Below, one piece after another: positions 2,768 through 51,356 of a stretch of DNA of 51,356 bases. Position 1 is the first letter of the stretch, and the number at the start of each line of letters is the position of its first letter. Below the pieces are notes generated by a model. The model ran no database searches and was not told the origin of the DNA. It saw only the letters and a list, made by a program, of their open reading frames with translations. The position numbers and the translations under genes are program-made. The stretch is from IMG/VR virus record IMGVR_UViG_3300001202_000003, positions 1 through 51,356 of that record. One strand, 5' to 3'. This DNA is from a virus.

Positions 2768-2795
2768 AAGCGGGGTTTACATCCCGCTTTTTTTA
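2768..2795 (+). terminator. Rho-independent terminator after ORF 1928..2725
   Basis: aAGCGGG-gtttacat-CCCGCTt followed by a T7 run. Confidence 0.75.
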
Positions 2796-2977: not shown

Positions 2978-3030
2978 CGAGCTAATAACTTACAACATTA
3001 CACCGCGCACAACACTGCACAACACTGCAC

Positions 3031-3074
3031 AAAAAAAAGGGCAGTACGGATTAATATCTACACTGCCCTTTTTT
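3031..3074. terminator. Bidirectional rho-independent terminator
   Basis: A8-GGGCAGT-16 nt loop-ACTGCCC-T6. It sits between plus-strand ORF 2897 and minus-strand ORF 3119..3283. Confidence 0.7.
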
Positions 3075-3283: not shown

Positions 3284-3431
3284 TTCTCAAATCCTTCTAT
3301 ATGAGCTTGCTAGAGCATCATGCCCTTAACTTTATACTGCTTTTACACTCACAAATACACAGTATCACACATATCTTAACAAACCCTTAACAAACCCTTA
3401 ACACCAGCAATACCAGCACAGCACCAGACAA

Positions 3432-3456
3432 TAAAAAACCCCGCTGGGAAGCGAGG
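3432..3456 (-). terminator. Rho-independent terminator candidate after ORF 3508..4029
   Basis: On the minus strand: CCTCGCT-tccc-AGCGGGG followed by T6. One mismatch in the stem. Confidence 0.55.
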
Positions 3457-3507
3457 CTTGCTCTTAATTTACATGTTATAGCTTATCCTAACAAACTAAC
3501 AACAACC

Positions 3508-4029
3508 TTAACCCTTCCTTTCTTTAAACTCTTTGGCCATGAAACTTAAAATACGCATAGTTTCATCACCTAATTTAGTACCAACTCTAGTTTCTTTCCA
3601 GTGCTTACGTGCTTGTTTTACACTACTAAACACTCTACAACCAGCGTGAACACTACCACTTTTACTCATTACAAACTGATATCCGTCAGACCTAATCGGG
3701 CCTTGTATTAAAGCATTACTACATTTTCTTATCTTTAAACAACTACGGCAATCAATACAACTAGTACAACTATTACAATTGACACAACTACTACAACCAG
3801 TGCATTTAATACAACTGTGGCATTCACCACAACCCTTACAACTATGGCAATTAATACAATTAACACAGCCACGGCAACAAACTAAAGTTCTTAAAGCAGC
3901 TTTTGCACTCTTCCTACTACCGAAATAATGATAATAGCACTTATTACCATCAATATCTACGACATATTCTTCGTATTCTATAATATCACGATCACTCTTA
4001 TTCATAATCTTAGTCGTAATCTTATCCAT
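3508..4029 (-). CDS. Cys-repeat protein, 173 aa, with 16 Cys at exact Cxx periodicity plus a C-terminal GC(R)xF..xxAR.HW-type domain
   Basis: CRGCVNCINCHSCKGCGECHSCIKCTGCSSCVNCNSCTSCIDCRSC read from the translation. GGAGAA ribosome-binding site upstream of the ATG. Confidence 0.8.
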   Translation of the reverse strand: MDKITTKIMNKSDRDIIEYEEYVVDIDGNKCYYHYFGSRKSAKAALRTLVCCRGCVNCINCHSCKGCGECHSCIKCTGCSSCVNCNSCTSCIDCRSCLKIRKCSNALIQGPIRSDGYQFVMSKSGSVHAGCRVFSSVKQARKHWKETRVGTKLGDETMRILSFMAKEFKERKG

Positions 4030-4533
4030 AATCTTATTCTCCTATTATTAATTAATCTACTATATACGCCAGTTCTGTCACATTAAAACCCTATAGTAAA
4101 GTTTTTCTGTCACGGAACATTACACCACAATTATACACAACGCAACCCCTTAGTTAATAATAATTCAATTAATGTTGTCAGTTTATATCTATTAGGTATA
4201 TATTTCCCTCCCAATTCACACAATGTACTACTAAATACATTCATGTTCACATATGTTCTTGTTAAGTTCACACTTTGTCGAGCCGCAAAATCACGACAGC
4301 AGTACTAATGCCTGCTCGCCTCGAAGACATGAGTAGTACAAAGCGTCAACAAAGCATGAACACTAGGGTACATAGTTAATGGGGGGTATTACCCCCAATA
4401 GTATGCAAGGCGCTGTTGCTATATAAAGACAACGCTCCAAAAAAATTATAAATAATAGATATGGTGTCAGTACTGTTTTAAATGTATTAGTAAATTGAAA
4501 TGCTGTGTCTCGGATGCTTGATGCTAGGGTTTG

Positions 4534-4658: not shown

Positions 4659-4690
4659 ATTAAAATTAAAAATTTAAAAATTTAAAATTT
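4659..4690. repeat. A/T-tract tandem repeat (TAAAATT AAAAATTT AAAAATTT AAAATTT)
   Basis: Read directly. Confidence 0.9.
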
Positions 4691-5537: not shown

Positions 5538-7178
5538 ATGGCTAATATGAAATACGACTATTCTGGTAATTTGTACACCGAAAAAGACTATCGTAATAAT
5601 GATTTTCTTACAGAACAGTTTATTAAACAAGAGGGGACCGGTGTTGGTGCAAGAGATATTCCAAAAGATATCCATGATTTAAACACAGTTAATATCGATC
5701 GGATACAGTTAATACAAACGCTTAAGTATGATTTTGATAGTTTTATTAAATTAATATTACACGAAGAAGAAGGTATCGATTTGGGGGTGCCTCCTTTTCA
5801 TAAATATGGTTTTAAAAAGATGACTGATATTGATATTATCAACTTAGTTATTGCTTGGCCGCGAGACCACGCTAAAACGACATTATTGAAAATAGCTATA
5901 CTGTGGTTGTTTATATACACTCCCTTTAGGTTTGCTATGTATGTTTGTCATACTAATAAGAAAGCGGCTAACGCCCTAGCTGACTTAGTTAATATGATGA
6001 AAAAGGAAAGTGTCGTCGGGATTTATGGTGTGCCTAAAATCATTAAAGCACAAGCCAGTACCGGAAGCTACCTTATTGATTGGTGTGATAAGAGAATTAT
6101 ATTAGAAGCTGTTGGTGTTGGGCAAGATGTTCGTGGTACTAATATTGACAACCAACGGCCACAGATACTAGCACTTGATGATGTTGAAAAAGCAGAAGAA
6201 GGTGAAGAAAATAAGATGGGTTACGAAGGTATTAGTGACTGGTTCTTTGCCACTCTTCGTAAATGTGTTGATAGGCGTGGCCATGTTATAAGACAGATCG
6301 GTAATTTAGTAGCTGAAAAAAGTTTGCTTTATGATAATCTTACTAGTGATTATTGGGTTAGTACTAGGTTATCAGCTATTACTAAAGAAGGCAAACCTCT
6401 TTGGCCTGCTAGATGGACTTTAGCACAGTTAAAGCTTGATTTATTGGAATATATTGAAAAAGGTAAGATGGGTATTTGGATGTCCGAAATGCTCAACATG
6501 CCTTTGAACGAGAGTAATGCTATTATACGTAGTGGTGATTTACTAATACGTGATGAAGTTACGCCTGACAACCCTGACATACTGATGAAATGTATTACTG
6601 TTGACCCAGCTATTACTAAAAGTGCCACACACGCTGATAATGCAGTGGTATTTGTACACGTTTATTTAAACGGTGCTTGGCAAGTAGGTGAAATATTCTC
6701 TGCTAAAGGACAAAGTGTTTACGATTTGTATTATAAGATCATCGAGCTAGCTTCTAAATGGCGAATTACTCTGGTAGGTATTGAAACTGAGGGTTATCAA
6801 GAAGCGTTGAGGCAGGTGTGTGAGCAGAAGGCTATTGAAATGGGTATTAATACAATGCATTTCGTGCCTTTAAAAACTAATAAGAAGTCAAAAGCTAGTA
6901 GAATTATAGCTTGGGCTGGTATGTTGAAAGCTAAGAGCTATGCTTTAAGTTTTAATTACCTTTGGTTGTTTGAGAAACTAGTTAAATATAATCCTGATAC
7001 TAAGAATAATGATGATGATGAGCCTGATGCTGGTAGTTATATATTGCATATGATAGATTACTATGGGCACTTAATGGCAGGTATTGTTGATGATAGACAG
7101 GTAGCTGCTGACAAACGATATAAAGATGCTCATCGTGATGACTATAGGTATTCAGATCAATTATACGTTAGGAATTAA
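5538..7178 (+). CDS. terL: Terminase large subunit
   Basis: Deviant Walker A AWPRDHAKTTLL, Walker B ILALDDVE, and nuclease-domain motifs ITVDPA, GIETEGYQ and DDDEPDAGSY. Position is just before the portal gene. Confidence 0.9.
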   Translation: MANMKYDYSGNLYTEKDYRNNDFLTEQFIKQEGTGVGARDIPKDIHDLNTVNIDRIQLIQTLKYDFDSFIKLILHEEEGIDLGVPPFHKYGFKKMTDIDIINLVIAWPRDHAKTTLLKIAILWLFIYTPFRFAMYVCHTNKKAANALADLVNMMKKESVVGIYGVPKIIKAQASTGSYLIDWCDKRIILEAVGVGQDVRGTNIDNQRPQILALDDVEKAEEGEENKMGYEGISDWFFATLRKCVDRRGHVIRQIGNLVAEKSLLYDNLTSDYWVSTRLSAITKEGKPLWPARWTLAQLKLDLLEYIEKGKMGIWMSEMLNMPLNESNAIIRSGDLLIRDEVTPDNPDILMKCITVDPAITKSATHADNAVVFVHVYLNGAWQVGEIFSAKGQSVYDLYYKIIELASKWRITLVGIETEGYQEALRQVCEQKAIEMGINTMHFVPLKTNKKSKASRIIAWAGMLKAKSYALSFNYLWLFEKLVKYNPDTKNNDDDEPDAGSYILHMIDYYGHLMAGIVDDRQVAADKRYKDAHRDDYRYSDQLYVRN

Positions 7179-7180
7179 TT

Positions 7181-9283
7181 ATGGTTAAAAGAGCTAAACG
7201 TGTTAAAAGTGTTGGTAGTGAAAGATTAACTATCAGTGATAGATCATTAAGTAAGAAAAAACATGATGAATTATTAACTTGGTTGTTTGATCGTATTATG
7301 CCTGCTTATTGTGAGCACACGGACAGAGTTTATTTGTATGATTGTGTTACAGAGGGTTTAGCTGCTAAGTACGAGAACAAAGGTTTTGAGAAAGAGCGGG
7401 AGATAGCTTACGCAAAAGGTCAGACCTCTATTCAAAGTGATATTAAATACCCTAAAGTTTTGGGTAATGTTAATGATATCGCGGCCAATGTTATTAATAT
7501 TTTGTTTCCGGCCAGACAAATGTATGGTAGCGTTGAGACGAGTCCCACCAAACAAGATATTACTGCTGCATTTGTCAGCGAGATGAATAAAAACTCTCGT
7601 AAGTTTAAACATTTTACTAATATGACTAAATGTATTACTGACGCAATTGCTTATAATGTTGCTATCGTTGAGAATGATTATCTTGAGGTTAAGGGTTACA
7701 CTGGTAGTAAAACTCGTGAGCGAAGTAATTTAAGTGCTACTAATAATACACAGATTATTAAACGTGGTACTAGGTTGAAACATTTGGATATTTACAATAC
7801 GATATTGGATTGGTCAGCTGACATTGAGAATTATAGTACTGACGCTGAATTTTACGTAAAGGTTGAGCGAGTTACTGATAACGATCTACTGCGTAAGCAA
7901 GAACAAGGCGAGATACTCTTAGCTAATGATATATTAAATTTGCTTAGAAGGCCTAAAGTTAACGGTGGTAAGATTGAAACTTCCAGTAAAGGCAGTCCTT
8001 TTTATAACACAGGGCATTTTTCTACTACTGTGCTTGGTAACCGTGGGGGAAGCAGTTTTGCGGGCATGTATCATTATCGCTGTGATTTTAGATCGAGATA
8101 TAATCATATTAGAGAACACTACAGTCATGAGGATAATAATAAACCATTTGATCATATTAAAAGTATTTACGGTAGTGATGGTGAGCGCATAAAAGAAAAA
8201 CAAACGGCACTGAATGAACTAGTTACTATTACAATTAGAGCCAGTGAAGAAGATATTGGTTTAAGTTCAAAACAAGGGACAGCTCGTGATCAAAGCGATG
8301 GGAAGAATATTAGAAAAATATGGCGCATTGGTATTGTTAACGGTATACGTATCGTTAGTATTGATGAAATTGCTACAAACCACGGAATGTTACCTTGTTC
8401 AGTAACTGTCCCTAAGACTGAGCTTAGTGACACTTGTAGTTTAAGCTTAAGTGAACAGTTATTGCCGTTTCAGGAAGCTGATAGCTCATTAATGAATATT
8501 TTTATTAAGCAAGCTAGAAGTGATAAAAACAAAGGTTTAACTTTTTATGCTAAAGAGATAGTGGACTTAGATGAATGGGCGGACCCTACTACTGGACGTA
8601 TTGGTGTTAATTTAAAAAATAAGAGTGGTCCTGATGGTAAAAACTATCGTTTGCAAGATTTAGTGCATAATGTGCAAGGGCATCCTATTAATAGAAGTCT
8701 TATTGAAGGTATGGGTTTACTGGAGCAAAAATCTCAGGATATATTTCCAACACAGAGTGTTGATCAGCTAGCAAATTTAAATAGACCTGTGACACATCAA
8801 AGTAGGTCACTAACACAGTTGCAGAATTTACCAGTGTTCATTTTTGCGAGAACTATTCATGATGAGTTGTTAGAACCACAAAACTATATGCATGTTATGG
8901 ATATTATTAATAATAATGATACTATTAGCATGATGAATAGTGAGGGTAACGAAGAACAAGTCGACCCTACTACTTTAGATTTAGAAAGTGTTGACTTAGC
9001 CGTTAGTGATGGTTTACGCGGTATTGATACTATTGCAGTCATGGATAGATTAAATCAAATACTACAGTATGCTTTCCAATCACCGGAAGTATTAAGAGAG
9101 TACGATGTTATGCTCATAGCTGATTACTTGTTGAAGATGGAAGGTGCCAATATTGAGATGGAAGCGTTTAAGTTCCAAAATCCTTTTGATGCATTACCAC
9201 CGGAACAGAAAGAGTTAGCAGTTCAATTATTACAACAAGCAGCTGCCGAGCAAGGTAATGATGACGGTGGGGGTGAATTATAA
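7181..9283 (+). CDS. Portal protein
   Basis: 700 aa, directly downstream of terL with a 2-nt gap, and an acidic C-terminus. The call rests on position and size. Confidence 0.75.
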   Translation: MVKRAKRVKSVGSERLTISDRSLSKKKHDELLTWLFDRIMPAYCEHTDRVYLYDCVTEGLAAKYENKGFEKEREIAYAKGQTSIQSDIKYPKVLGNVNDIAANVINILFPARQMYGSVETSPTKQDITAAFVSEMNKNSRKFKHFTNMTKCITDAIAYNVAIVENDYLEVKGYTGSKTRERSNLSATNNTQIIKRGTRLKHLDIYNTILDWSADIENYSTDAEFYVKVERVTDNDLLRKQEQGEILLANDILNLLRRPKVNGGKIETSSKGSPFYNTGHFSTTVLGNRGGSSFAGMYHYRCDFRSRYNHIREHYSHEDNNKPFDHIKSIYGSDGERIKEKQTALNELVTITIRASEEDIGLSSKQGTARDQSDGKNIRKIWRIGIVNGIRIVSIDEIATNHGMLPCSVTVPKTELSDTCSLSLSEQLLPFQEADSSLMNIFIKQARSDKNKGLTFYAKEIVDLDEWADPTTGRIGVNLKNKSGPDGKNYRLQDLVHNVQGHPINRSLIEGMGLLEQKSQDIFPTQSVDQLANLNRPVTHQSRSLTQLQNLPVFIFARTIHDELLEPQNYMHVMDIINNNDTISMMNSEGNEEQVDPTTLDLESVDLAVSDGLRGIDTIAVMDRLNQILQYAFQSPEVLREYDVMLIADYLLKMEGANIEMEAFKFQNPFDALPPEQKELAVQLLQQAAAEQGNDDGGGEL

Positions 9284-9326: not shown

Positions 9327-9480
9327 AAAATTTTGGGCTGGATAAGTAAGGTGTTTACAAACGTATTTTATTGTTTCCTAGTGAACGTAAGTGAACGGCG
9401 TAGCCGTGATCGCAGCGTTAGCGTAAAACAATAAAACTTGGTTTGTCAATACTTTACGAAGGCTCCAGACCATTAAATTT
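9327..9480 (+). repeat. E1: GC-rich structured intergenic element, family copy 1 of 5 (sense to local transcription)
   Basis: Ends AAAATTTTGGGCTGGA ... AAGGCTCCAGACCATTAAATTT. Internal pairs are GTGTTTACAAAC/GTTTGTCAATAC and TTTTATTGTTT/AAACAATAAAA. Central hairpin ACGGC-gta-GCCGT is followed by GATCGCAGCGTTAGCGT. Confidence 0.85.
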
Positions 9481-9508
9481 TTGACACAACTAAAGAAAGG
9501 AAATAGTA

Positions 9509-23000: not shown

Positions 23001-23147
23001 TTTAATTGGAATGAATTAGTACTTGACACGGATTTTTTGGCTGACAACGTGACCGCTAGGGAACGGCTTGCCGTTACCGCAGGGGGAACCCCGATCAGCC
23101 AAAACACTTGGTGTCAAGTATTCTAATTCAAAGGTTCCAATTATAAT
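23001..23147 (+). repeat. E2: GC-rich structured intergenic element, copy 2 of 5 (sense); the most rod-like copy
   Basis: Nested inverted repeats AATTGGAA/TTCCAATT, TGAATTAG/CTAATTCA, TACTTGACAC/GTGTCAAGTA and TTTTGGCTGA/TCAGCCAAAA. They enclose hairpins AACGGC-tt-GCCGTT and GGGG-gaa-CCCC. Confidence 0.85.
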
Positions 23148-23167
23148 AATTATGAGAAAGCACAACT

Positions 23168-23707
23168 ATGAATAATAATGAACAACTAAATAATCAAAAT
23201 ATTAATACTGATATACCTCAAGCAACACCTAAGCAAGAATTTGAAAAAGATTATCTTAATCAACTTGAGATATTGACTTTCGAAAACAATAAAGAAGCTT
23301 TAGGTACTATTGCTTGGATTGCTCATTTTGACGAAAGATTTAAAGATCAACCTTTTAGTCTTGTTATGAATGATATTTATGGTTCAGTGATACATAATCA
23401 ATATGTAATAGCAGGTCAACCAATGGGTGATAAAGAAAATTTATTCCCTGTAGCCTTTATTACATGGGGTATGTTTAATACTCCTGTTGCTACAATACGA
23501 GCAAATAACATTAGACCTCTTTCACCTTTAGAGTATAAATCTGGTAATATTGGATTTTTTACTATGTTTAGTTCTCCTTATGAAGAACCTGATAAAATGA
23601 TTGAACTAATGCGGGCAAAAAGCTCAAAGTTACAAAGTCTTTCAAGCATTTCATTTGTTGACAGATTGTTTAAACCAGACTATACTTTTAGGAGTAGACA
23701 AAGTTAA
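23168..23707 (+). CDS. HlyC/CyaC-like protein (RTX toxin-activating lysine-acyltransferase family fold); catalytic residues possibly substituted
   Basis: The recalled family motifs match in order and with matching spacing. These are LGTIAW, a Pro 12 residues after that Trp, QY starting 16 residues after that Pro, PVAFITW, SGN ending 27 residues after that Trp, and xSPY. This comes from memory of HlyC and CyaC sequences, not from a search. Confidence 0.45.
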   Translation: MNNNEQLNNQNINTDIPQATPKQEFEKDYLNQLEILTFENNKEALGTIAWIAHFDERFKDQPFSLVMNDIYGSVIHNQYVIAGQPMGDKENLFPVAFITWGMFNTPVATIRANNIRPLSPLEYKSGNIGFFTMFSSPYEEPDKMIELMRAKSSKLQSLSSISFVDRLFKPDYTFRSRQS

Positions 23708-29154: not shown

Positions 29155-32100
29155 ATGTCCATGAGAGATTTCTTAGCTAATAACAGCAACTTTGAAGAAA
29201 CTGTCCGAGGTGATAATCAAGTATTTGAACAGTTCTTACAAACACCAGAAGAACGTGAAGAAGCAAATCAAACTACTTTTAGTGACATTGTTTTTTCACC
29301 CGCTGGTATTGCGTTAGGTGCTGCTGATACTTTATTACAAAGTATTGGTTTAGTTGATGAGAATGATGTAGGTAATGCATTACGTGGTATTTCTAGTGCT
29401 GCTGGTCAAATATACAATCGTAATCAAGATGGTTATAGGTTGCTAGGTGACATTGGTACAGCCTTTACTGGTGCTGGTTTAGCTACTAAATTATTAAGAG
29501 CGCCTAGCTTAGCAAGGACTTTAGCTACCGCTGGGCGTACTAGTAAAACTGCTAGACTTGCTGAAAAGCTTATAGTTAGTGACCAAGGTCGTGTTGATAA
29601 TTATGTTAATTTATTAACTAAGAAAGCCGTTGCTTTAGGTCAAGCAGGTATTCGCAATCCTATTAATGTTGAAAGTTTTAGGCAGTTAAATAATGCTACT
29701 AGGTTAAAACAATTTACTAATGATTTAAAAGAAGGCGTCGCTGCGGAAGCTTTTATCGCTACTTTTCAATCTGAAAGCGAATTGTTTTTTCCAGAAGGGC
29801 AGTCTTTTAGTGATGTTACTATAGGCGCTATTGGAGGCCTAGGTATTGGCAATGTTATCGGGCAAGCAATTGTAACCCCTGCCATTAAGAAAGCTGCCAG
29901 AGCCGGAGGTATTGCTGCTTCTAAACGTGGTGTCGAATATAGCACTAACCCAAGTACTAACTTTATCATAGCTGATGGCGTAGAACAAGAATTTCGTGAA
30001 GGTAAATTCGCAGATAATATTAACGCCCTTACTAATCAAGACGGTACTGTTAAGTCTGAAATAGATAATCAAATCACAGAAGCTCAAAGACAGAAAAACA
30101 ATTCAGTTGTAACGTTGCAACAAGCTGAACCTATTAAAGGTTTAAGCACTGTGATGCTTGGCGATGCTAATAAAAGTATCGTTAAATCTTTAGAAACTAT
30201 TACACAATCTGATCCTAGGCTTGGTGCTAATATTGTTAGTATAGAACCTGTTGAATTTTTATATGAGTTTAACGGTGCTAAAGGTCAAAATATTCTTAAA
30301 GAATTAAAACTTGAGCAAGCTGATCTTAATAAGCAGAGACTATCGGCTGCTGCTGGCATTGAAGAAAATTTAATAGATAGCAAACTAGAAAATGTTAATC
30401 GACAAATAGCTGATTTATCAGGTGACATTGTACCTTTAAAAGTAAATCAATTAGGTCTAGTTACTAGTGATATTAATTCAAGAACAGTCTTTGATGAAAA
30501 ACGTATTAGTACTAGTACAATACCACGTGAAATAAATAATAATAATATTGGTAAAACTATACATCTGACAAGGGTTGACGGTGGTGACAATGCTTTGCAA
30601 GCTGGTGTTGATGTTAGTGGTAAGATGTTTGTTCGCAAAGGTAAGAAACTAGAACAAATAAGTTCAAGCGCGGGGTTGGGTGATTATAATGGTAGTAAAA
30701 TTTACGCGGCACACAATAGAGCTTTGAATGATTTAGGTAAGATACTTCGTGGTGATGAGGGTGTCGTTCAACCTAGAGCTGCTACTAAAATTACTAAAGC
30801 AGACAGCTTTGAGACTTTAGACTACGTGCAGCAAGCTTTAAAATTATACGGTAATAATGGTGACTTTAAATCAATAGCTAAAGTTATTGACCTTTCAGAC
30901 TTTGAAGATATTAATGATATTAAATTTCACACAATAAATAAAAAGTTTGATAGATTTAAAAATATCTTTAGAAACTATGAAAATAATCTACGCAATGGAA
31001 ATGCTACGAATACACCGGTAGAAGATTTCAGCACACAATTGATGTTACCTGCTGGTGATGCAAACGGTACTAGCAACTATGTTACTGAATTTTTTCTTGA
31101 TGTTATTAAAGAGGGTAAAACCGTAGGCAAAGATTATAATGAATTGATGAATAACTTTACACAACATTTTGCAGCAGATGCTAGTGAAAGAACTGTGCAG
31201 GGTGTTCGTATTAATAATGGTTTGAATGCGGGTAATTTGTTAGAATTTGATTATATTGGTGCAATTAAAAGTAATAATGAAAGTTTTGCTTTAGCTCTTA
31301 GGCGTAACAGTGACGAAGATGAATTGATACCTGCTAGAGCTTTGAGTGATGTTGCACGTTTAACAGAAGAGCAAAGACAACTAGACTTAGGTGCGCGTAT
31401 TAGTAATGATAATGTTGCTGGTCCATTCCTTCAAATATTACATGATCAAACGCAAAATCTAGCGCCTCTTGTGGATGATATTAAAAGAGGTTCTAGCGAG
31501 CTAACACAAGGTGCTACTAGTAACCCTATATTTCCTAGACTTGGTAAGTTTAGTATTACAACGCAAGCTTTTGACAACAGAGGTGTTACTGGTGCTAATA
31601 GCGCAGATACTTTAAGTGATGTACTATCTCGTAACATGTCTGTAGCTAGTCGTAATTATATTCAAGAAAATATGCAAGGTGTTAGAGAGATTATTAAACC
31701 TGGAAATGAGGACAGTGCTTTTAATTTACTACTAGGCATAAGTGCGCTTAGACAAGGTTGGGATTTAGAAACGACAGTATTTGATGATCTAGGTAGATTA
31801 AAACTTAACCCTGATAGTGTTAGAAACAAGGCTATTGTCAATAGTAATAATGATTTAGTAAGAACTAAATATAATAATAAAGTTCCTGAGTTTTTACCTG
31901 ACATAGGTGTTGATAGTAATATACCTTTACGTTTTGATGAATTAGCTCAACGAAGTTTTAAAGAACTCAACGGTGTTAGTGATATCGATTGGAGCTTTAG
32001 AAATACATTGGCTAGAAATCTTAACACTACCGGGAGACAGTACAAAGTTGGACACGTTCCAATACCACGTAGTTACGAAGATAAGATATTCGTTGTTGAC

Positions 32101-34344
32101 AATACAGGCAGGCCAGTAGAGTATGTCGTAGTTGATACGCCTGAAAAGGCAAGGCGTGAAGCTTTAAAATTACAACAAGAATATAATCGTCGGGATAAAG
32201 ACGAAGGACGTAGCGGTGGTTATGGTATTGTTGACCGTAATTCAGTAGAAGAATACAAAAATTTAAATCATCAGGTAGTTACTAGCGATGTGTTGCGTAG
32301 TGGTACTGGTGATGGAGCTAAAGCTGCTGGAGAGCGTTCTGGTATAATTACTGATATTAAATATTTACAAAATATGTTTGATGAAACTAATGCTATTTTT
32401 GACGACATGAGAAAACAATACACAGTTACTCGTTTCGCTAATGAATTAGAAAATGTTCGTAGCTTACAAAGAATAGCTGCTGTTAATAATAGAGGGCTTA
32501 CTAATGTCTTTACAGGTGAAAGTGGCGATAGCTTTACTGACGTATTTAGCGGTTTTAGTAATTTGTTACTTGGTGATAATCAGCGCAATGTTGGAAGCCT
32601 TTACGGTGCTGCGGGGACTATAATGGATGAAGCATTTGCTAATTCTTGGAATGAAGCACGTAATTTATGGACTAAGTTAGTACCTGAACGTGGTGGCAAT
32701 AAAGCATTAAATGCTGCTGTTAAAAAATATGCTGAAAATAATAATCATAATCCAATTGAGTACGCGGCTAATATAGCTGCTAGAAGTATTAGCAAAGGTA
32801 GTGGGTTAACTAGTGATAAATTAGTTAGGCAGTTAGCAGGACTTACTACAGGGCTTGCCCTTAAATGGGGTGAAGTTGGGCATGCTGCTTTGACTACTGC
32901 TAGTATTTTAAGCACTACTCCACACGCTGTTAGATACGCCAAAGCTTTTGCTAATGAAACAGCAGAAGATTACGCTACTAGGGTAGGTCACACACATGAT
33001 TTTCTTGACGGTAGTCATGCTATGCCTAATCCAGTAAAGTTAACACTTAGTACTATTATGAAACGTATGCGCGGTGATTATAAAGATGTTTTAGCTAAAG
33101 CTGCTGAAAAAGGTTACACTGATGCTAAGATGGCTGAATTTGTAGATGAGTTTGCTGTTAAACGTGGTGGTAAAATTGGAGATGTATTAGCTAAAGCCGA
33201 TAAATATACAGGTTATGTTAGCACACAATCAGAAGCTTGGGCTAGAGAAACGGCGTTTTTAACTGGCTACGAAATGTATCGCAATATTGGTAAAAACAGT
33301 GAGGATATTTCTATGGCTATGGCTAATGTTATAGCTAATAGAGCTATCGCTGATTATAGACCGCATCAAAGAGCTGAATTGTTTAAAGGTACTGCCGGAG
33401 TGCCGCTGGCTATGTTCCAAACATTTGCTATTAATTATTTCCAAAGACTTGGAAGTGCTATTGAGAACAAAGCTTACGGCGCTGCATTTACACAAGCTGG
33501 AACTCAAGCAATGATGTTTGGCGGTCAATCAGTGCCGGGTTTTGAGTTGTTTAATGAAGTTTTATTAGAAAACTGGAATGAGACACGCAGACCAGAAGAT
33601 TTATTTCGTGAAGGTTTTGGTAATGAAAATTTAGGTAGGATGCTTTTATACGGAGCGCCTACTACTTTACCCTTAATGCTTGGCTTTGATAACGGTATTG
33701 CTTTACACAACCGTGGTGAAATGAGTTTGCCGAGAAATATAACACCTGCTACTATGTTCAATACTCCGTTTTTTAGCATGGCCAGTAGAACAGGCGAGGC
33801 TCTCAAACGTGGTTTTAATACTGCAATTGGAAATTTTGGGGAAGGCGGTGCTGACGCGCTCGCTGAAAGTTTAATATTCTCTGTGCCTAATAGACCTTTG
33901 AGGGGGTTATTAGATGTTACATTGCAAGGATACTCTACTAATGCACACGGTGATATTGTCAACGATGAACTTGATAGTATATTTGAAATTGGTACACATG
34001 TTACAGGTTTGCAGACCGTCAGGCAGGCTGAGAACGCAGCTTCTTTGTGGCGTGATAGACAACGTATTTTATCAGAACGTGCATCTATGGACCGCCTGAA
34101 CGCGGCTGTGACTGCTCGTATCCGTAGAAACGGATTAAACACTCTAACAAATACGGATATAGGTGAAATTTCAGAAGAATACTTTAGTAGTGGTGGAAGT
34201 GAACGCGGTTTTAAATCTTGGTTAAAACGAACTATTGCTAAAGCTGAAATTAGTAAAGTTGATAGAGAAGTGTTGAAAGCTATCCGTAGTACTAGAAACG
34301 GTAGAGACCTACAACACTTCTTAGGTATTGATGACGAAGAGTAA
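29155..34344 (+). CDS. Giant internal virion or ejection protein, 1729 aa
   Basis: Last and largest gene of the virion operon, starting 1 nt after the upstream stop. Analogous in position and size to podovirus core or ejection proteins. No enzymatic motif recognised. Confidence 0.6.
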   Translation: MSMRDFLANNSNFEETVRGDNQVFEQFLQTPEEREEANQTTFSDIVFSPAGIALGAADTLLQSIGLVDENDVGNALRGISSAAGQIYNRNQDGYRLLGDIGTAFTGAGLATKLLRAPSLARTLATAGRTSKTARLAEKLIVSDQGRVDNYVNLLTKKAVALGQAGIRNPINVESFRQLNNATRLKQFTNDLKEGVAAEAFIATFQSESELFFPEGQSFSDVTIGAIGGLGIGNVIGQAIVTPAIKKAARAGGIAASKRGVEYSTNPSTNFIIADGVEQEFREGKFADNINALTNQDGTVKSEIDNQITEAQRQKNNSVVTLQQAEPIKGLSTVMLGDANKSIVKSLETITQSDPRLGANIVSIEPVEFLYEFNGAKGQNILKELKLEQADLNKQRLSAAAGIEENLIDSKLENVNRQIADLSGDIVPLKVNQLGLVTSDINSRTVFDEKRISTSTIPREINNNNIGKTIHLTRVDGGDNALQAGVDVSGKMFVRKGKKLEQISSSAGLGDYNGSKIYAAHNRALNDLGKILRGDEGVVQPRAATKITKADSFETLDYVQQALKLYGNNGDFKSIAKVIDLSDFEDINDIKFHTINKKFDRFKNIFRNYENNLRNGNATNTPVEDFSTQLMLPAGDANGTSNYVTEFFLDVIKEGKTVGKDYNELMNNFTQHFAADASERTVQGVRINNGLNAGNLLEFDYIGAIKSNNESFALALRRNSDEDELIPARALSDVARLTEEQRQLDLGARISNDNVAGPFLQILHDQTQNLAPLVDDIKRGSSELTQGATSNPIFPRLGKFSITTQAFDNRGVTGANSADTLSDVLSRNMSVASRNYIQENMQGVREIIKPGNEDSAFNLLLGISALRQGWDLETTVFDDLGRLKLNPDSVRNKAIVNSNNDLVRTKYNNKVPEFLPDIGVDSNIPLRFDELAQRSFKELNGVSDIDWSFRNTLARNLNTTGRQYKVGHVPIPRSYEDKIFVVDNTGRPVEYVVVDTPEKARREALKLQQEYNRRDKDEGRSGGYGIVDRNSVEEYKNLNHQVVTSDVLRSGTGDGAKAAGERSGIITDIKYLQNMFDETNAIFDDMRKQYTVTRFANELENVRSLQRIAAVNNRGLTNVFTGESGDSFTDVFSGFSNLLLGDNQRNVGSLYGAAGTIMDEAFANSWNEARNLWTKLVPERGGNKALNAAVKKYAENNNHNPIEYAANIAARSISKGSGLTSDKLVRQLAGLTTGLALKWGEVGHAALTTASILSTTPHAVRYAKAFANETAEDYATRVGHTHDFLDGSHAMPNPVKLTLSTIMKRMRGDYKDVLAKAAEKGYTDAKMAEFVDEFAVKRGGKIGDVLAKADKYTGYVSTQSEAWARETAFLTGYEMYRNIGKNSEDISMAMANVIANRAIADYRPHQRAELFKGTAGVPLAMFQTFAINYFQRLGSAIENKAYGAAFTQAGTQAMMFGGQSVPGFELFNEVLLENWNETRRPEDLFREGFGNENLGRMLLYGAPTTLPLMLGFDNGIALHNRGEMSLPRNITPATMFNTPFFSMASRTGEALKRGFNTAIGNFGEGGADALAESLIFSVPNRPLRGLLDVTLQGYSTNAHGDIVNDELDSIFEIGTHVTGLQTVRQAENAASLWRDRQRILSERASMDRLNAAVTARIRRNGLNTLTNTDIGEISEEYFSSGGSERGFKSWLKRTIAKAEISKVDREVLKAIRSTRNGRDLQHFLGIDDEE

Positions 34345-34347
34345 ATT

Positions 34348-34836
34348 TTATTCTGCGAATAGTTTATTTGATCTACTTGTAGATTTTGATTTACGTAAAG
34401 GTTTTGTATTAGAAGTTACTTTAACTTCAGAAGTTTTTTCATTTTTAAATCTATCACTAGTTACTATTTGATGTTGTGTTACATTAATAGTTTTTTCGAA
34501 ATCTACTTTTTCAAATAGTTCTTCTGGAGATATATCTAAAATATCTCCAGCTACTACCAAACCAGCAATAGAACATTCAAGTTGATTTAGCCTCTCAACA
34601 GCTTTGGCCATAGTTTCTAAAAGTTTTGCTTTATTATTAATTAAAGTGTGTAGCCGTTCTGTTATAATAGCGCGTTCTTTTTTAGTGCTTTCAAAACTAT
34701 TAATTGCTTTTATATTAGCTGTGGCAGCTTGCGCTATTTCATTTTCCATGGAAATAACATTGCTCTCAGCTTTAATAGATTTATCAGTATTAGCTATCAG
34801 ATCTTGTACGTTTGATTGTTGCATTTGAGTATTCAT
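34348..34836 (-). CDS. Coiled-coil hypothetical protein, 162 aa
   Basis: Last gene of the minus-strand block. Its stop lies 3 nt from the stop of the convergent 1729-aa gene. Confidence 0.6.
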   Translation of the reverse strand: MNTQMQQSNVQDLIANTDKSIKAESNVISMENEIAQAATANIKAINSFESTKKERAIITERLHTLINNKAKLLETMAKAVERLNQLECSIAGLVVAGDILDISPEELFEKVDFEKTINVTQHQIVTSDRFKNEKTSEVKVTSNTKPLRKSKSTSRSNKLFAE

Positions 34837-35409: not shown

Positions 35410-35556
35410 AAAATTAGTGGTCGGAACCTTCTCATTCCGGGGTGTGACTTGTTCGTTTCAGTGCTTCGCTTCGCTGTGGCGATCTGGCGATCGCCTCTGG
35501 CTCACTATGGCACTTACACTAAGTCAACCCGCTCATTCATTCCGCCCAAATTTTAA
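35410..35556 (-). repeat. E3: GC-rich structured intergenic element, copy 3 of 5 (minus orientation, sense to the minus-strand operon)
   Basis: On the minus strand: AAAATTTGGGCGGAA ... GGTTGAC ... GGCGATC-gcca-GATCGCC-ACAGCGAAGCGAAGC ... AAGTCAC ... AAGGTTCCGACC. It fills the gap between ORFs 35566 and 35388. Confidence 0.85.
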
Positions 35557-35839: not shown

Positions 35840-37213
35840 TTACTCCATTGATTTAAAAGTTTCTTCTGCTAGCATTTGATCAAGCATTTCCATGCTTGTA
35901 GATGTTTGTGCTTTTTCTTTAGGCATAGGCGGTATTAGCATATCGATTTGAATAGTACCTTTTTGGGTACTTTGTTTTTTACTCTCTCGAACGCAGTAGC
36001 CACGTGTTATAAACTCATTAACAGTTTCTTCAAAATCGCGACCGGACATATCTCTTAGCATGTCAGCTTTAATAGCACTGACAGTAACACCCATAGGCCA
36101 AGAATTATCTAGCATTTCTTTAAAACGTTGTTTAGCTAATGAAAGTTTATCTAGACCTATTTCACCTAGCGACTGTGCCATTGTTTTCTCTGTCTCACAT
36201 AAAATTCTATGAGCATCTATTATATCAATCTTTTCAATAGTAGTGCGCATTTCACCCGCGGCTAGTAACATAGCTACTTTATGCAGGTGGTCTAACCTTC
36301 TAGCTTCATACGCCAAAAACCTACTGTCATTAATATCAGGTTTAAATTCCTTATACAGCTTAGCTATTAAAGCAACACAATCCTCTGCTATGTTAAATTC
36401 TTGTGAAAGGTTTGATACCTCTGCTAAAGTATTGCCTAGCAATTCACCTTTAGTTTCGTCTAAATCAGGTACTGGGTACACTGGTGCGCTAGGCTTACCT
36501 TCATAAACCATAATAACACGTGAGCTAAAACCGTGGCCAATGCTACTAGGAGGTAAATGCGTAGCCAAACCTGTTGGAGTAGCACAACCTATTAAATTTA
36601 AACATGGTTTGTATATATACTTACTTTCTTTAGAAAGCGCATATTCATATTTATCTTTAGGATTATATATCTCTGTGAGCATACCAATCATTTCAACTTG
36701 GTTTTGTCCTATGAGATTAATTAATTCATCTGCTACGATATACAATTCACTAGGAGGTTTTTTTTCTTTTACCTTTTTCCTAGCTTTACTAAAAGCATCG
36801 TTTATCTTACTTTCGTTAGATATTTCATTAAAAATACTATCACTTAAACCTGCCTCGTTAAGCTCTTCTTGTAACCTAGGTTTTTCGTAGTGATTAAAGA
36901 ATGATGTAATGATGCCTTGTTTCTTACCAGCTGTATCAGTAGGTCCGAATTTAATATCAGTATACTTTGAGATAACGCCTTGCATTAAATCAGAAGCTGT
37001 AGATTTACGCACGGCTGATGGACCTATTAAAAGAATATACATGTTAGGATAAAAAACTAAGCGGCCAACTTTTAAAGTACTACGTCTACCGAGACAAGCC
37101 GCAATACCACTTAAACCTGTCCATAGTGACATGATAAAAGGTGTTTCCCCGCCCCCGCAATAACTTAACCATTCTTTAATAAAAGAATTATTTAGTTCTT
37201 TTTCGCTAAGCAT
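35840..37213 (-). CDS. P-loop NTPase, DUF3987-like; putative replicative helicase or primase-associated protein
   Basis: Walker A LLIGPSAVRKSTAS is preceded by SLWTGLSGIAACLGRR...VFYPNMY. That arrangement matches DUF3987 or D5-type phage and plasmid helicases as I recall them. Confidence 0.45.
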   Translation of the reverse strand: MLSEKELNNSFIKEWLSYCGGGETPFIMSLWTGLSGIAACLGRRSTLKVGRLVFYPNMYILLIGPSAVRKSTASDLMQGVISKYTDIKFGPTDTAGKKQGIITSFFNHYEKPRLQEELNEAGLSDSIFNEISNESKINDAFSKARKKVKEKKPPSELYIVADELINLIGQNQVEMIGMLTEIYNPKDKYEYALSKESKYIYKPCLNLIGCATPTGLATHLPPSSIGHGFSSRVIMVYEGKPSAPVYPVPDLDETKGELLGNTLAEVSNLSQEFNIAEDCVALIAKLYKEFKPDINDSRFLAYEARRLDHLHKVAMLLAAGEMRTTIEKIDIIDAHRILCETEKTMAQSLGEIGLDKLSLAKQRFKEMLDNSWPMGVTVSAIKADMLRDMSGRDFEETVNEFITRGYCVRESKKQSTQKGTIQIDMLIPPMPKEKAQTSTSMEMLDQMLAEETFKSME

Positions 37214-42698: not shown

Positions 42699-42716
42699 GT
42701 TATGGATAAGTGAACT

Positions 42717-42764
42717 TTATTGTTAAACTTTTATTGTTAAACTTTTATTGTTAAACTTTTATTG
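42717..42764 (-). repeat. Tandem 14-bp repeat, 3 copies plus a partial fourth (plus strand TTATTGTTAAACTT; minus strand AAGTTTAACAATAA), in the leader of ORF 42030..42698
   Basis: Read directly. The partial fourth copy contains the stop codon of ORF 42759..43715. Confidence 0.95.
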
Positions 42765-48289: not shown

Positions 48290-48842
48290 AATTTGTAGCT
48301 TTCTTGCCTATAAATTGTTGCTAAATCTTGCATAATAGCACCTTGAACTTTATTATCATTAGCCATAGCAATGTGCCCTGATTTAATTTTTGTTTGGCAT
48401 ATTGAACCGATTGATTTACTGAGTTTTGGAAGTGTTTTATATGTTTTATTAAGTGCCTATTTTGATAAGCTAGCGTCATGTCTATGCCACAGAAGTAGTC
48501 TATAACATTGTTATAACCGATTTGAACAGGTGTTTTTGCTCTATAATTAATATATTTTAATCCATCACGAAAACCGTTACTGTGTCCTATTATTACGTTT
48601 AGGTAATTAACATTATTTAGAATATTAAAGCTTTCTGTGTTAAATGCTCTACCCATCCAAGACATATCATTTCCGTCAGATGAATAAATATTTACTATTG
48701 AATTTGGAAACTCTGTGGTAATACGTTTCTTTAATTTTTTGGCCCACCGTTGGAACATCCATGTACCTATGATAGGAATAGAAGAACCTAAGCCGCACAC
48801 TAGTGTTACATTTAATATTAATTCTTTTTTATTAACTGTCAT
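48286..48842 (-). CDS. Small lipase/esterase-like alpha/beta hydrolase, interrupted by a -1 frame break at an A5 run (48387-48391)
   Basis: Frame 0 (48321..48842) has the oxyanion-type LVCGLGSS and the nucleophile elbow IIGHSNG. The -1 frame downstream reads IKSGHIAMANDNKVQGAIMQDLATIYRQESYKL. That is a typical catalytic-His C-terminus (compare Bacillus LipA [21 protein letters not shown]). It ends in an ATGA overlap with the next gene. Confidence 0.6.
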
Positions 48843-48880
48843 TTTACATAATTCCTCATTTTATATTTAACGCGAAATAA

Positions 48881-49022
48881 TTATGGTCTGGAACCTTATT
48901 CGATAAGTTGACTCGTTCACTGCGGTGCTACGCTGACGCTGCGGTGAGGCTGACGCCTCACCTACGGCTCGCTTTTGGCACCTACGTGCGTCAACCAATC
49001 TCATATCCAGCCCAAATTTTTT
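48881..49022 (-). repeat. E4: GC-rich structured intergenic element, copy 4 of 5 (minus orientation, sense to the minus-strand operon)
   Basis: On the minus strand: AAAAAATTTGGGCTGGA ... GGTTGAC ... GGTGAGGC-gtca-GCCTCACC-GCAGCGTCAGCGTAGC ... GAGTCAAC ... AAGGTTCCAGACCATAA. Confidence 0.85.
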
Positions 49023-49065
49023 AGCTCTTATTAGTACATTTTTCAAAAATCATTACCTGATTGGT

Positions 49066-49216
49066 TAAATTTTTGGCCGGAAAAAGAATACGTGTTGACT
49101 AGTGAAAGCGATAAAACCGACACGCAGGGGAGGGCTTGCCCTCACCGTTAGCGTTAGCGTCAATCGCTGTAACGAATAAGTCAATACTATTCGCAAGGTT
49201 CCGGCTAATTAAATTT
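49066..49216 (+). repeat. E5: GC-rich structured intergenic element, copy 5 of 5 (plus orientation, antisense to local transcription; head-to-head with E4)
   Basis: TAAATTTTTGGCCGGAA ... GAATA ... GTTGAC ... AGCGAT ... GGGGAGGGC-tt-GCCCTCACC-GTTAGCGTTAGCGTC ... ATCGCT ... GTCAA ... TATTC ... AAGGTTCCGGCTAATTAAATTT. Confidence 0.85.
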
Positions 49217-49528: not shown

Positions 49529-51356
49529 CTACAAATCAATCCCTTTCATTTTATCCATGTCAAAACCACTAATATAACTATTAATCTTTTCATCCATAGT
49601 ACTACCTTTAATGCGCATATTATTAACACAACGTTTTAACGCATATTTAGTACATAACAACGTCACATTTTCAACACAACGCGTTACAGCCGTGTACAAC
49701 AATTCATTAAATAACATTTGTCCGTGACAATCATGTAAGCAGATGAACACATTTCTAAACCCACTACCTTGTGATTTGTGTATCGTTATCCAATAAGCTA
49801 ATGCTAAATTCTCAATCTGTGTACTAGTTTCGAATAAATGATGATGTGCTAAACCTCCTGCGTCATCTTCTTCTAAATAATCAAACTGTATCTCACAAAA
49901 GTGACTGGCTTTTCTAAGCCCAGTACCTTCATCAGTAACATCAGCGTCACCAATGACATTATTATCGCCTTTATATAACCCGCCGCCAAACATGGCATTA
50001 ACTTTATCCCGCTGCTTTTTAAGCTTCTGCTCTTTGCGACGTTCCTCTAACTCCTTACCTACATCAAATTCCAAGCCTTCAAATTCACCAGTTTTACCTT
50101 GCCCTGCACCTAGATTACTATTATTATAATGCTCGCCACTAATACCAGCATTAGCATTAATGCGGTCAATCCATCCAAGCATGCCATTATAAACACCTAT
50201 TTCATTATCATTTTTCAAATTAATAACACGATCACCAACGGCAAATTTTTGCTGATTACGCATTGTTTTGATTAACATTATGTCATTATCAGGATTAACT
50301 ATTTTTCTAGTCCTAACATTAAGCATTTCTTGACCTAACGTACCAACATTACTAGGCGTCAACAATATGTCTTGCTCAGGGTCATACCTACCTTCTGCAT
50401 ATGCTTTATTTATAAAATTCTCAACCTGTTGCGCTGCAATATTTTCATTCTTATCTATGCCTAATATTTTAAAATTGTCACTAACTTTAGGCATTTTACC
50501 ACTACGAATTAAGTTAGCATTACTAATAACATCACCTTCTTTTTGGCGGTATATTTGAGTTAATTCCACTGTAGGATATTTAGCTAATAATAAAGGATGT
50601 ATAGAACTGTCTAAAACAGGTTGTAATTGTGCGAGGTCACCTATTGTTATTATTCTGCAATCTTCTGGCAATGCATCTAGCAACATCTTCAACAACTTAA
50701 CACCTACCATCGATATTTCATCAATAATAACTAAATCAAAATCTAATTTAACCGCTTCTTGTTCTTTACGCGTCATACCGCTATCATACTCACTACAAGG
50801 GTAGCCCTCAGCGTTAATCCACACACCATTATGACAACGTGGCTCAAAGAATTTTTTATTCAAAGTCTTATAAGCCTGCTCTTTTTTATCGTAATGTTCT
50901 ATCTCACGACTTACAGGCCCAAAATTTATTATCTTATGAATAGTATTACAGTTAGCCTTAAACTCATTAGGCACAACTCTACGCAGTGTTTTAACTGCCA
51001 GTCCTGTAAACGCACCCATCGAGAAATTAAATGTGTGTGCTGTTAAATGTGAATGGTTACTAACGTGTTTGTTTTTCGAAATAGTACCGCTTTCAATTAA
51101 TTGCCTGACCATTTCCAAAACAGTAGTAGTTTTACCAGTACCCGCGTAGCCAATAATATTACAGCGTTTTTCTTGCAGTGCCATTGTAATAGCTGACTGT
51201 TGTTTCGCATTGAGTTTTATTTCTTCACGTGATTGCGGCTGCGTAGGTTCTTTATTGCCATTAATTTCATCACACAAAACTTCTAAAGCTTGCCTTTTTC
51301 CCGCAGGTAATTCATAGTTATCATTTAAGCCGTCTACTAAGTCATCTACTAAATTA
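49529..51356 (-). CDS. RecD/Dda-like SF1 DNA helicase; the 5' end wraps to 126..1
   Basis: Walker A IIGYAGTGKTTT, Walker B LVIIDEISMV, and C-terminal ITIHKSQGSGFRNVFI and LYTAVTRC motifs. The frame stays open to the window end. Confidence 0.9.
   Translation of the reverse strand, partial: NLVDDLVDGLNDNYELPAGKRQALEVLCDEINGNKEPTQPQSREEIKLNAKQQSAITMALQEKRCNIIGYAGTGKTTTVLEMVRQLIESGTISKNKHVSNHSHLTAHTFNFSMGAFTGLAVKTLRRVVPNEFKANCNTIHKIINFGPVSREIEHYDKKEQAYKTLNKKFFEPRCHNGVWINAEGYPCSEYDSGMTRKEQEAVKLDFDLVIIDEISMVGVKLLKMLLDALPEDCRIITIGDLAQLQPVLDSSIHPLLLAKYPTVELTQIYRQKEGDVISNANLIRSGKMPKVSDNFKILGIDKNENIAAQQVENFINKAYAEGRYDPEQDILLTPSNVGTLGQEMLNVRTRKIVNPDNDIMLIKTMRNQQKFAVGDRVINLKNDNEIGVYNGMLGWIDRINANAGISGEHYNNSNLGAGQGKTGEFEGLEFDVGKELEERRKEQKLKKQRDKVNAMFGGGLYKGDNNVIGDADVTDEGTGLRKASHFCEIQFDYLEEDDAGGLAHHHLFETSTQIENLALAYWITIHKSQGSGFRNVFICLHDCHGQMLFNELLYTAVTRCVENVTLLCTKYALKRCVNNMRIKGSTMDEKINSYISGFDMDKMKGIDL
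51308..51356. repeat. Terminal overlap, copy B (identical to 1-49)
   Basis: Same 49-mer as at 1-49. Confidence 0.95.

Follow-up and report, generated by a model that had tools for sequence, protein, structure and literature searches.

Ten paralogous intercistronic RNase III hairpins, with internal loops and at conserved positions, are found in phage T7, and REP and ERIC hairpins change the stability of the mRNA segments that flank them. In this study, we analyzed a hairpin of about 150 nt present in five copies, named E1 to E5, in a stretch of viral DNA of 51,356 nt (IMG/VR record IMGVR_UViG_3300001202_000003, positions 1 to 51,356), hereafter called the window. A sequence-only reading of the window had described five related palindromes between genes and had proposed for them either a structured RNA or a mobile element. 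We report that these copies belong to a family with a selected fold, shared with related uncultured phages. Our first-ranked interpretation, held tentatively (probability about 45%), is that of an intercistronic mRNA processing or stability element, comparable by analogy to the T7 RNase III sites.

The likeness with the T7 sites (R0.3 ... R18.5) is one of architecture. In both cases, a family of paralogous hairpins within one phage genome is placed between the cistrons of long polycistronic transcripts, mostly or always in sense orientation, with an asymmetric internal loop breaking the stems and with locations that related phages share; the stabilities of neighbouring mRNA segments would be expected to be decoupled as a result. 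A T7-type hairpin, of at least about 20 bp with an internal loop and placed between genes, is indeed found in the element. However, the element is about three times longer (~150 nt versus ~50-60 nt for T7), has two conserved internal loops and a three-way-junction apex, and some of its copies are antisense or form inverted pairs. In the T7 RefSeq record, the RNase III sites are unannotated.

Palindromes of the ERIC, Correia and REP types are also imperfect, 100-150 nt long, located in transcribed intergenic gaps in either orientation, and thought to act at the RNA level on mRNA stability or processing. In contrast with these, the element shows no target-site duplications, no high copy number, no near-identical copies and no copies in the reference bacterial genomes scanned, and it belongs to a phage lineage in which one copy is positionally orthologous over deep divergence. 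REP/BIME sequences are described in PMC3733652 and PMC2817692 as palindromes of 20-40 bp with a GTAG/CGTC tag, present in hundreds of copies per host genome and associated with a RAYT transposase. We did not retain this assignment: the element is ~150 nt long, has five copies per genome, and no Y1 transposase was detected among the proteins scanned.

Finally, a catalogue of phage-metagenome RNAs (PMC10690425) contains motifs of the same sort, that is, intergenic, supported by covariation, next to virion genes of uncultured phages and absent from Rfam. Motifs in that catalogue are on average 67 nt long, with a maximum of 151, and at least 3 IMG/VR loci were required for each. The thousands of unnamed phage RNA candidates that it holds temper any claim of novelty. 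Overall, the kind of element is known, namely paralogous intercistronic phage hairpins, but this family is not in Rfam and is set apart by its size, its architecture and the way its copies are oriented.

Five homologous copies in the window

A covariance model (R1) was built on E1 and two orthologs from other phages, and the whole window was scored with filters off. A broader model (R2) was built on 17 sequences. The copies are the following.

E1, 9327-9482 including the A/U clamp helix P0, plus strand: type copy, between the portal stop (9283) and the scaffold ATG (9509); model match 9332-9477, 146.8 bits (R1) and 130.6 bits (R2).
E2, 23001-23148, plus strand: sense copy, starting 3 nt past the stop of a 154-aa gene (22997) and ending 19 nt before the ATG at 23168; 52.3 bits (R1) and 102.5 bits (R2).
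E3, 35413-35550, minus strand: sense copy, the most diverged, between the stop of an 89-aa gene (35566) and the ATG of the transglycosylase gene (35388); 22.2 bits with E=0.0017 (R1, filters off) and 37.2 bits (R2).
E4, 48879-49016, minus strand: sense copy, 36 nt upstream of the ATG at 48842, head-to-head partner of E5; 36.6 bits (R1) and 74.2 bits (R2).
E5, 49072-49212, plus strand: copy antisense to the minus-strand genes on either side, 38 nt past the stop of a 91-aa gene that follows the RecD-like helicase gene; 53.6 bits (R1) and 82.1 bits (R2).

R1 returned exactly these five loci, the best unrelated match reaching 10.9 bits (E~1). The five homologous copies of the sequence-only reading were thus recovered, at essentially the coordinates it gave and in the orientations it claimed, E5 being antisense to its neighbours and the other four sense. 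Orientation is clear from the scores, which are much lower for the reverse complements (26.2 bits for E1, 7.4 bits for E2). Each copy folds as an imperfect hairpin of ~150 nt, with z values of -3.4 to -8.2 relative to its own mononucleotide shuffles. The description of the copies as GC-rich islands was true to a modest degree only: their GC content is 0.38-0.51, against 0.36 for the genome, with E1 at 0.38.

The sequence landmarks listed previously are visible in the alignments, namely an A/T clamp, a closing stem GGxxGGA...TCCxxCC, TTGAC/GTCAA, a central GC hairpin, AGCGTNAGCGT and AAGGYTCC. Two of them take another meaning once the fold is known. What had been seen as a single central hairpin is actually a three-way junction. 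The motif AGCGTNAGCGT, for its part, is present in E1, E4 and E5 and weakly in E3, where the apex is of a type that we call B; E2 and most copies of the relatives have instead a second small covarying hairpin (type A).

A selected fold

From base to apex, the element consists of an A/U clamp, a helix P1, an asymmetric loop 1, a helix P2, a loop 2, a variable helix P3 and the three-way junction. The rod made by P0 to P3, of ~45 bp, comprises the clamp and the 34 pairs modelled in P1-P3 and is interrupted by two conserved internal loops; the junction caps it with two covarying hairpins. In E1, all on the plus strand, these parts are as follows.

9335-9342: 5' strand of the closing stem P1, GGGCTGGA, pairing with 9464-9471, TCCAGACC, with a conserved G.A mismatch.
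9343-9345: 5' side of internal loop 1, UAA, opposite 9458-9463, GAAGGC.
9346-9362: 5' strand of helix P2, with TTTAC (TTGAC in other copies), pairing with 9441-9457, which contains GTCAA.
9366-9376: 5' strand of helix P3, the variable arm, pairing with 9426-9436.
9377-9425: apex, with a purine-rich junction strand (..GTGAACGTAA), the hairpin A core ACGGC-GTA-GCCGT, and GCAG-CGTTAGCG, the latter being the type-B substitute for hairpin B.

Covariation was examined on an alignment of 19 sequences and 46 pairs, which was fitted by the model, so that pairing figures are somewhat inflated. Standard pairs fill 93.3% of the pair cells, against 34-42% when the 3' partners are slid by 1 to 3 columns. 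Compensatory changes, on both sides of the pair, are found for 43 of the 46 pairs, and none of 500 shuffles reached any of the observed measures. The conclusion of a selected fold stands despite the fitted alignment, because the slid controls fall very far below the observed pairing and compensatory pairs can be seen in the raw sequences, for instance GGGCTGGA/TCCAGACC, GGGCAGGA/TCCTGACC and CGCGGGGA/TCCCCGTG. The claim that the stems covary has therefore found statistical confirmation. MAFFT followed by RNAalifold on the raw copies recovers part of the fold only, and the model-based alignment is needed for the whole.

In P1 (helix 1), 96.7% of the cells are paired and 7 of the 8 pairs show compensatory changes, as do 13/13 pairs in P2 (helix 3), where a G.U recurs at one position in 9 of the 19 copies, and 10/10 pairs in P3 (helix 4; 94.7% of cells paired). 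The P2 of portal-site copies has a conserved U.C mismatch. Loop 1 opposes 1-3 nt to (G/C)(A/C)AAGG(Y), the 3' strand being conserved in nearly all 19 copies, and CGAAGGCTCC in this region is near-invariant among E1 orthologs. Loop 2 is CGUAUU opposite AACUUGG in most copies. At the apex, the 5' junction strand is purine-rich and ends in GA(A)CCGNAG; it is followed by hairpin A (7-9 bp, mostly with a C-GNA-G triloop, 7 of 8 pairs covarying), a GCA linker, hairpin B and GA. Hairpin B of type-A copies covaries at 4/4 pairs (GGUC/GACC, GGGC/GCCC, GGUG/CACC, GGGG/CCCC, GGAA/UUCC); E2, which has a type-A apex, carries GGGG-GAA-CCCC. The type-B apex is a minority form (E1, E4, E5, L134 and L006 14039) in which CG-UYAG-CG replaces hairpin B, and this replacement accounts for the AGCGTNAGCGT motif of the sequence-only reading.

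The working strand

The alignment contains 41 G-U or U-G pairs, against 4 A-C or C-A pairs. In 17 of the 19 copies, the element's own strand is more stable than its complement (mean 8.3 kcal/mol, Wilcoxon p=0.0003), and with DNA parameters this holds for 18 of 19. Even for E5, the fold of the own strand is more stable by 8 kcal/mol than that of the strand which the neighbouring mRNA would carry. The G-U excess and the own-strand stability indicate that the element acts as one specific single strand, and not as duplex DNA or a cruciform. Together with the compensatory pairs, they give strong support to the structured, single-strand interpretation.

The working form is most likely RNA rather than single-stranded DNA (ssDNA). 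Copy L128, with 7-9 G-U pairs, has a stability of -62.9 kcal/mol as RNA, within the family range, and of -19.4 kcal/mol as DNA, the weakest value. G-U-rich copies thus fall within the stability range of the family under RNA parameters only, which fits RNA better than DNA. RNA is further favoured by the co-orientation of most copies with genes and by a conserved site that is sensible for gene expression. This evidence for RNA over DNA is not decisive, and ssDNA is considered again below.

The family in related phages

Relatives of the window were traced through portal and helicase homologs among the uncultured contigs of ENA, Logan, JGI and IMG/VR; their source samples include those of ERZ6864144, SRR17148704 and JGI 3300039195. 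With R2, the family comprises 19 full copies, in at least 9 related uncultured phage contigs. A copy is present in the portal-to-scaffold gap of every relative whose post-portal region was readable, down to the most distant one, L133, whose portal is 29% identical to that of the window. Other sites are less constant. Relative 1 (L006) also has a copy in the gap equivalent to that of E2 (1328-1472), a tail-to-tail pair after the primase-helicase gene and one copy upstream of the amidase gene; relative 2 (L007) has, like E4/E5, a head-to-head pair between the helicase and amidase genes; none was found near the amidase gene in L134.

Relatives with a portal-site copy: L001, L002, L003/L004 (cut), L128, L130, L132, L133 and L134.
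L006 13869-14017 (plus strand) and L006 14039-14174 (minus strand): tail-to-tail pair of relative 1, 21 nt apart.
L007 4758-4902 (minus strand) and L007 5166-5312 (plus strand): head-to-head pair of relative 2, flanking an 86-aa open reading frame (ORF).

In the viral contig collection searched, a search with the single portal protein gave no relative. An alignment of portals gave two contigs there and one further in the JGI metagenomes, where the second match, L131, is the same contig as L129; two contigs of the viral collection represent the element family. The apex pattern AGGTGAN{8,12}TCACCGYAG had at least 120 chance matches in viral contigs, and none was confirmed by the model among the 80 loci listed. 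In L133, a region of 1.1 kb (6957-8056), directly past the capsid gene, has no called gene and no element match with R1.

The distribution of copies bears on whether the family is a selfish or recombination element similar to a miniature inverted-repeat transposable element (MITE) of the ERIC or Correia type, which would have spread within phage genomes and whose palindrome would reflect the mechanism of transposition. Copy number and position do vary between relatives, the copy upstream of the amidase gene being present in relatives 1 and 2 and absent from L134; both orientations occur, and inverted pairs exist in some genomes only. Outside the portal site, moreover, similarity does not follow position: E2 is 40% identical to its positional counterpart L006 1327, and E5 51% to L006 14039. 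Against these points, direct repeats bounding the helix are 0-3 nt long at most in 19/19 copies, which is the chance level, so that no target-site duplication is seen; nor is the A/T clamp one, being an inverted repeat that extends the helix. Paralogs within one genome are only 29-56% identical (29-58% for all pairs of non-orthologous copies), implying that there are no young copies, and the genome has no transposase among the proteins scanned. The portal-downstream copy, in contrast, is orthologous across the whole group. The maintenance of the structure through many compensatory changes indicates long-term purifying selection to the phage's benefit, and with the portal-site orthology, it points to a function serving the phage.

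No true copy was found in 185,579 reference bacterial and archaeal genomes scanned with two specific patterns, which cover only part of the family's diversity: one pattern had 0 matches, the other 6, and the model rejected 6/6. Among these six are the matches to a 30-nt apex pattern in three Microcoleus genomes (L138 1279-1308, L139 4891-4920 and L142 4834-4863). They are chance matches, L138 and L139 sharing one conserved, apparently coding stretch. Overall, the MITE, ERIC or Correia proposal finds no support for the present-day state of the family, and we consider a selfish mobile element highly improbable.

Known RNA families, terminators and promoters

As had been supposed, the element matches no named RNA family: Rfam 15 gave 0 matches on the whole window at gathering thresholds, and for E1 and E4/E5 at E<=10 it gave only noise, of 11-17 bits. 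By eye, we compared the element with hammerhead, hairpin and twister-sister ribozymes, 6S RNA, SRP RNA, 5S-like words, kink-turns, a tRNA-like T arm and the phi29 pRNA; in each case the motif order or the junction strands did not fit, and Rfam gave no support.

Intrinsic (Rho-independent) terminators were also considered. There was no terminator-like call at any of the five elements, and several copies of the relatives are without any T run (for example L007 5166 and that of L133). Canonical terminators, with a GC stem and a T run, are present elsewhere in the window, at 2768-2789 (both strands) and 3436-3459 (minus strand). The 150-nt elements are therefore something different from the ordinary terminators that the host machinery uses.

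A promoter at the 5' edge, with the A/T clamp as -10 box, likewise found no support: it is not conserved, and the scans performed no better than the shuffled expectation. At this edge, several copies touch or overlap the stop codon of the upstream gene, and these lack a -10-like hexamer. A sigma-70 promoter inside the element, starting from TTGACA, is not supported either, as -10-like hexamers lie at variable distances from it, 11 to 19 nt.

Position relative to genes and proposed function

Every copy lies between ORFs, starting 0-44 nt past the upstream stop codon and ending 19-141 nt before the next start codon, and the downstream gene is never overlapped. This is a sharper rule than the location at module boundaries first suggested, which was roughly right. 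The element is sense to the flanking genes in 15 of 19 copies, including all 10 copies downstream of a portal gene. In E1 orthologs, it is followed by an unstructured CA-rich leader and by the Shine-Dalgarno sequence of the next gene. A start so close to the stop codon, followed by a leader and a ribosome-binding site, is the layout of processing or stability hairpins, and for this reason mRNA punctuation is ranked first.

According to this proposal, the element would be a cis-acting structured RNA module inside long polycistronic phage transcripts. As no phage RNA polymerase was detected, these transcripts are probably made by the host RNA polymerase and would need internal punctuation. The module would be recognized by an endoribonuclease that is double-strand-specific or guided by structure, for example the host RNase III, or RNase E at the A/U-rich flanks; alternatively, it may merely be a barrier to 3' exonucleases. 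The long transcript would be cut or punctuated at the elements, so that the mRNA segments on either side gain independent stabilities and expression levels; one boundary of this sort separates the low-copy portal from the scaffold and capsid, which are high-copy. The nuclease or an accessory protein probably makes contact through the conserved loops and junction. Taken together, RNA-level functions of all sorts are probable.

Several observations weigh against punctuation. To begin with, a duplex of about 20 bp is all that RNase III requires, and the conservation of the three-way junction and of the loop sequences suggests a partner of greater specificity. Such an elaborate apex keeps in play a role as protein-binding RNA, trans-acting RNA or ribozyme, the element being then a functional RNA in its own right. 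It could be a transcript module binding a specific protein, such as an antitermination signal of the put/nut kind or a translational operator. Or it could be an RNA of ~150 nt released from mRNAs, either acting in trans as a decoy or sponge or being a new self-cleaving ribozyme, the antisense copies being separate small-RNA genes. Consistent with this, the conservation of loop and junction sequences (CGAAGGCUCC, GA(A)CCGNAG, GCA, GA) and the covariation of both junction hairpins go beyond the requirements of a nuclease barrier. A set of copies within one genome, divergent in their stems and alike in their loops, resembles multi-site protein-binding RNAs, and RNase E could plausibly release the element at its A/U-rich flanks. 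Portal or capsid genes, in addition, adjoin many candidate cis-regulatory RNAs of phages (PMC10690425). By eye, divergent promoter-like hexamers are also seen in the A/T-rich spacer that separates E4 from E5 at their 5' ends:

49017-49071: E4-E5 spacer, 55 nt, with two divergent -35-like hexamers that overlap (TTGAAA / TTCAAA); 17 nt separate each of them from an A/T-rich -10-like hexamer.

These divergent promoter-like sites are only a lead: the promoter scan listed neither site, and overall finds no more sites than in shuffled sequence. On the other side, no candidate partner protein was identified, most of the neighbouring proteins having no family match; no promoter signal rises above background upstream of antisense copies; no ribozyme, 6S, Y-RNA or antitermination family of Rfam matches, even at E<=10; and the copies are found mid-operon, whereas put and nut sites are at operon starts. 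A functional RNA distinct from punctuation seems to us possible, if somewhat unlikely.

The second set of adverse observations concerns orientation. Four of the 19 copies are antisense (E5, L006 13869-14017, L129 1782-1923 and L007 4758-4902); they score like the sense ones and keep the folding bias of their own strand. For a purely cis-acting mRNA element, antisense copies are unexpected, except where transcription at those loci also runs along the other strand. Nor does such an element predict the inverted pairs lying close together in three genomes, head-to-head in two of them and tail-to-tail in one. The four well-preserved antisense copies are left unexplained by punctuation, and this leaves room for a priming role in ssDNA or for an independent small RNA. 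Finally, the loops of hairpin A are mostly C-GNA-G triloops, a hallmark of DNA mini-hairpins of unusual stability; in RNA hairpins, tetraloops are more usual. These triloops, with the words TTGACA and TAGCGT, recall initiation signals on ssDNA.

Signals of this type (ssiA/ssiB of RSF1010, ssoA, Frpo of the F plasmid) are strand-specific imperfect palindromes with one working orientation, and the element is indeed a strand- and orientation-specific imperfect palindrome. They share with it inverted pairs near replication genes, a -35-like TTGACA in the stem and the TAGCGT of type-B apexes, which we take to be the CS-6 consensus of ssoA origins. They differ from it in that ssiA/B are 40 nt long and sso and Frpo belong to rolling-circle or conjugative plasmids, while copies of the element are spread around a dsDNA phage genome, are mostly co-oriented with transcription and are rich in G.U(T) pairs. 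For RSF1010, PMC8567376 describes a primase, RepB', that initiates on two inverted 40-nt hairpins.

By comparison with these signals, the element could be an ssi/sso-like signal for priming or initiation that works on one specific strand: a hairpin on the template exposed during replication, recognized by the phage primase-helicase (35840-37213) or the host RNA polymerase, the head-to-head pair E4/E5 marking a bidirectional origin as ssiA/ssiB do in the RSF1010 oriV. Such a role would account for strand specificity even in the four antisense copies, with no need of antisense transcription, and for the head-to-head pairs found between helicase and amidase genes in two genomes (E4/E5 and L007 4758(-)/5166(+)). 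The conserved TTGAC(A)/TGTCAA duplex in the stems also fits. An origin between E4 and E5 would place all five copies on the lagging-strand template, a weak argument since 22 of the 32 orientation patterns of five elements on a circle fit some origin/terminus pair. However, the G.T mismatches, up to 7-9 per copy, would badly weaken the DNA hairpin, and no -10-like hexamer keeps a constant spacing to TTGACA. Neither the minimum of the GC skew (4322) nor an iteron-like repeat (42716-42764) lies between E4 and E5, and relative 1 has no head-to-head pair but a tail-to-tail one only. The sense position just past the portal stop in every relative fits gene expression better than replication. Altogether, we find a priming or origin signal on ssDNA, the chief alternative to an RNA, quite improbable.

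Beyond these separate proposals, the element may be not mRNA punctuation but a strand-specific single-stranded nucleic-acid device, comprising either dispersed DNA hairpins for priming or origin function, which the phage primase-helicase would read, or a new class of excised protein-binding or self-cleaving RNA. The inverted pairs could then be bidirectional origins in the DNA option, and in the RNA option the RNA could be expressed from the antisense loci as well. We regard such a device as unlikely, and keep mRNA punctuation as our preferred reading.

Genome context and other observations

The terminal 49 bases of the window are identical (1-49 and 51308-51356), which makes it a circular assembly of a complete, ~51.3-kb phage genome. 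This genome, circularly permuted, has 51,307 unique bases and a GC content of 36%. It encodes a large terminase, the portal and an SU10-type capsid protein, and a long block of virion proteins lies on the plus strand. The minus-strand block encodes a RecD-like helicase, an amidase, a PD-(D/E)XK nuclease, a Sak4-like protein, a family-A DNA polymerase, a transglycosylase and the following gene cited above:

35840-37213: gene of the DUF3987 primase-helicase.

No RNA polymerase, integrase or transposase was detected among the proteins scanned. The structural region had no nucleotide-level relative by blastn among 50,697 phage records, and the nearest cultured capsid, from Pseudomonas 119X/PaP2-like podoviruses, is ~24% identical, too distant for any characterized relative to lend its annotation. 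The largest ORF (1,729 aa, 29155-34344, plus strand) has no Pfam match, and a counterpart of 1,723 aa is found at the same place in relative 1; presumably, it encodes a virion protein that is ejected or internal.

Cumulative GC skew is lowest at 4322 and highest at 34415, positions that coincide with the divergence and convergence of gene orientation, and an A/T-rich repeat tract lies near the minimum, at 4660-4690. Between a gene of 222 aa and the Sak4-like gene, the intergenic gap holds 3.5 perfect copies of a 14-nt unit, TTTATTGTTAAACT, at 42716-42764. This tract resembles an iteron or operator array and could be a mark of the replication origin.

Short CA-rich tandem repeats are found in and around gene leaders of the 1.8-4 kb region, at 1860-1906, 2823-2871, 3007-3032, 3375-3403 and 3749-3816 (AACACAATTA x4.7, ACCCAACACTA x4.5, and others). 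A similar leader, ACACAAC, is present between E1-type elements and the scaffold start codon in several relatives. Such repeats may be translation enhancers or protein-binding sites.

Significance

The family, which is missing from Rfam, yields a model validated by covariation (19 sequences, 46 pairs) and a marker for this phage group, and the element is a defined construct for cleavage, probing and binding experiments. Should the antisense, strand-biased copies and the inverted pairs reflect priming at the DNA level, they would represent a new way for a tailed phage to organize its replication. If the element is instead an RNA processing or stability module, as we tentatively propose, it would be a second, independently evolved example of the transcript-punctuation strategy of T7. 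This T7-like strategy would then operate in an uncultured lineage that apparently uses the host RNA polymerase, with a much more elaborate fold and with conserved loops that suggest a specific partner.

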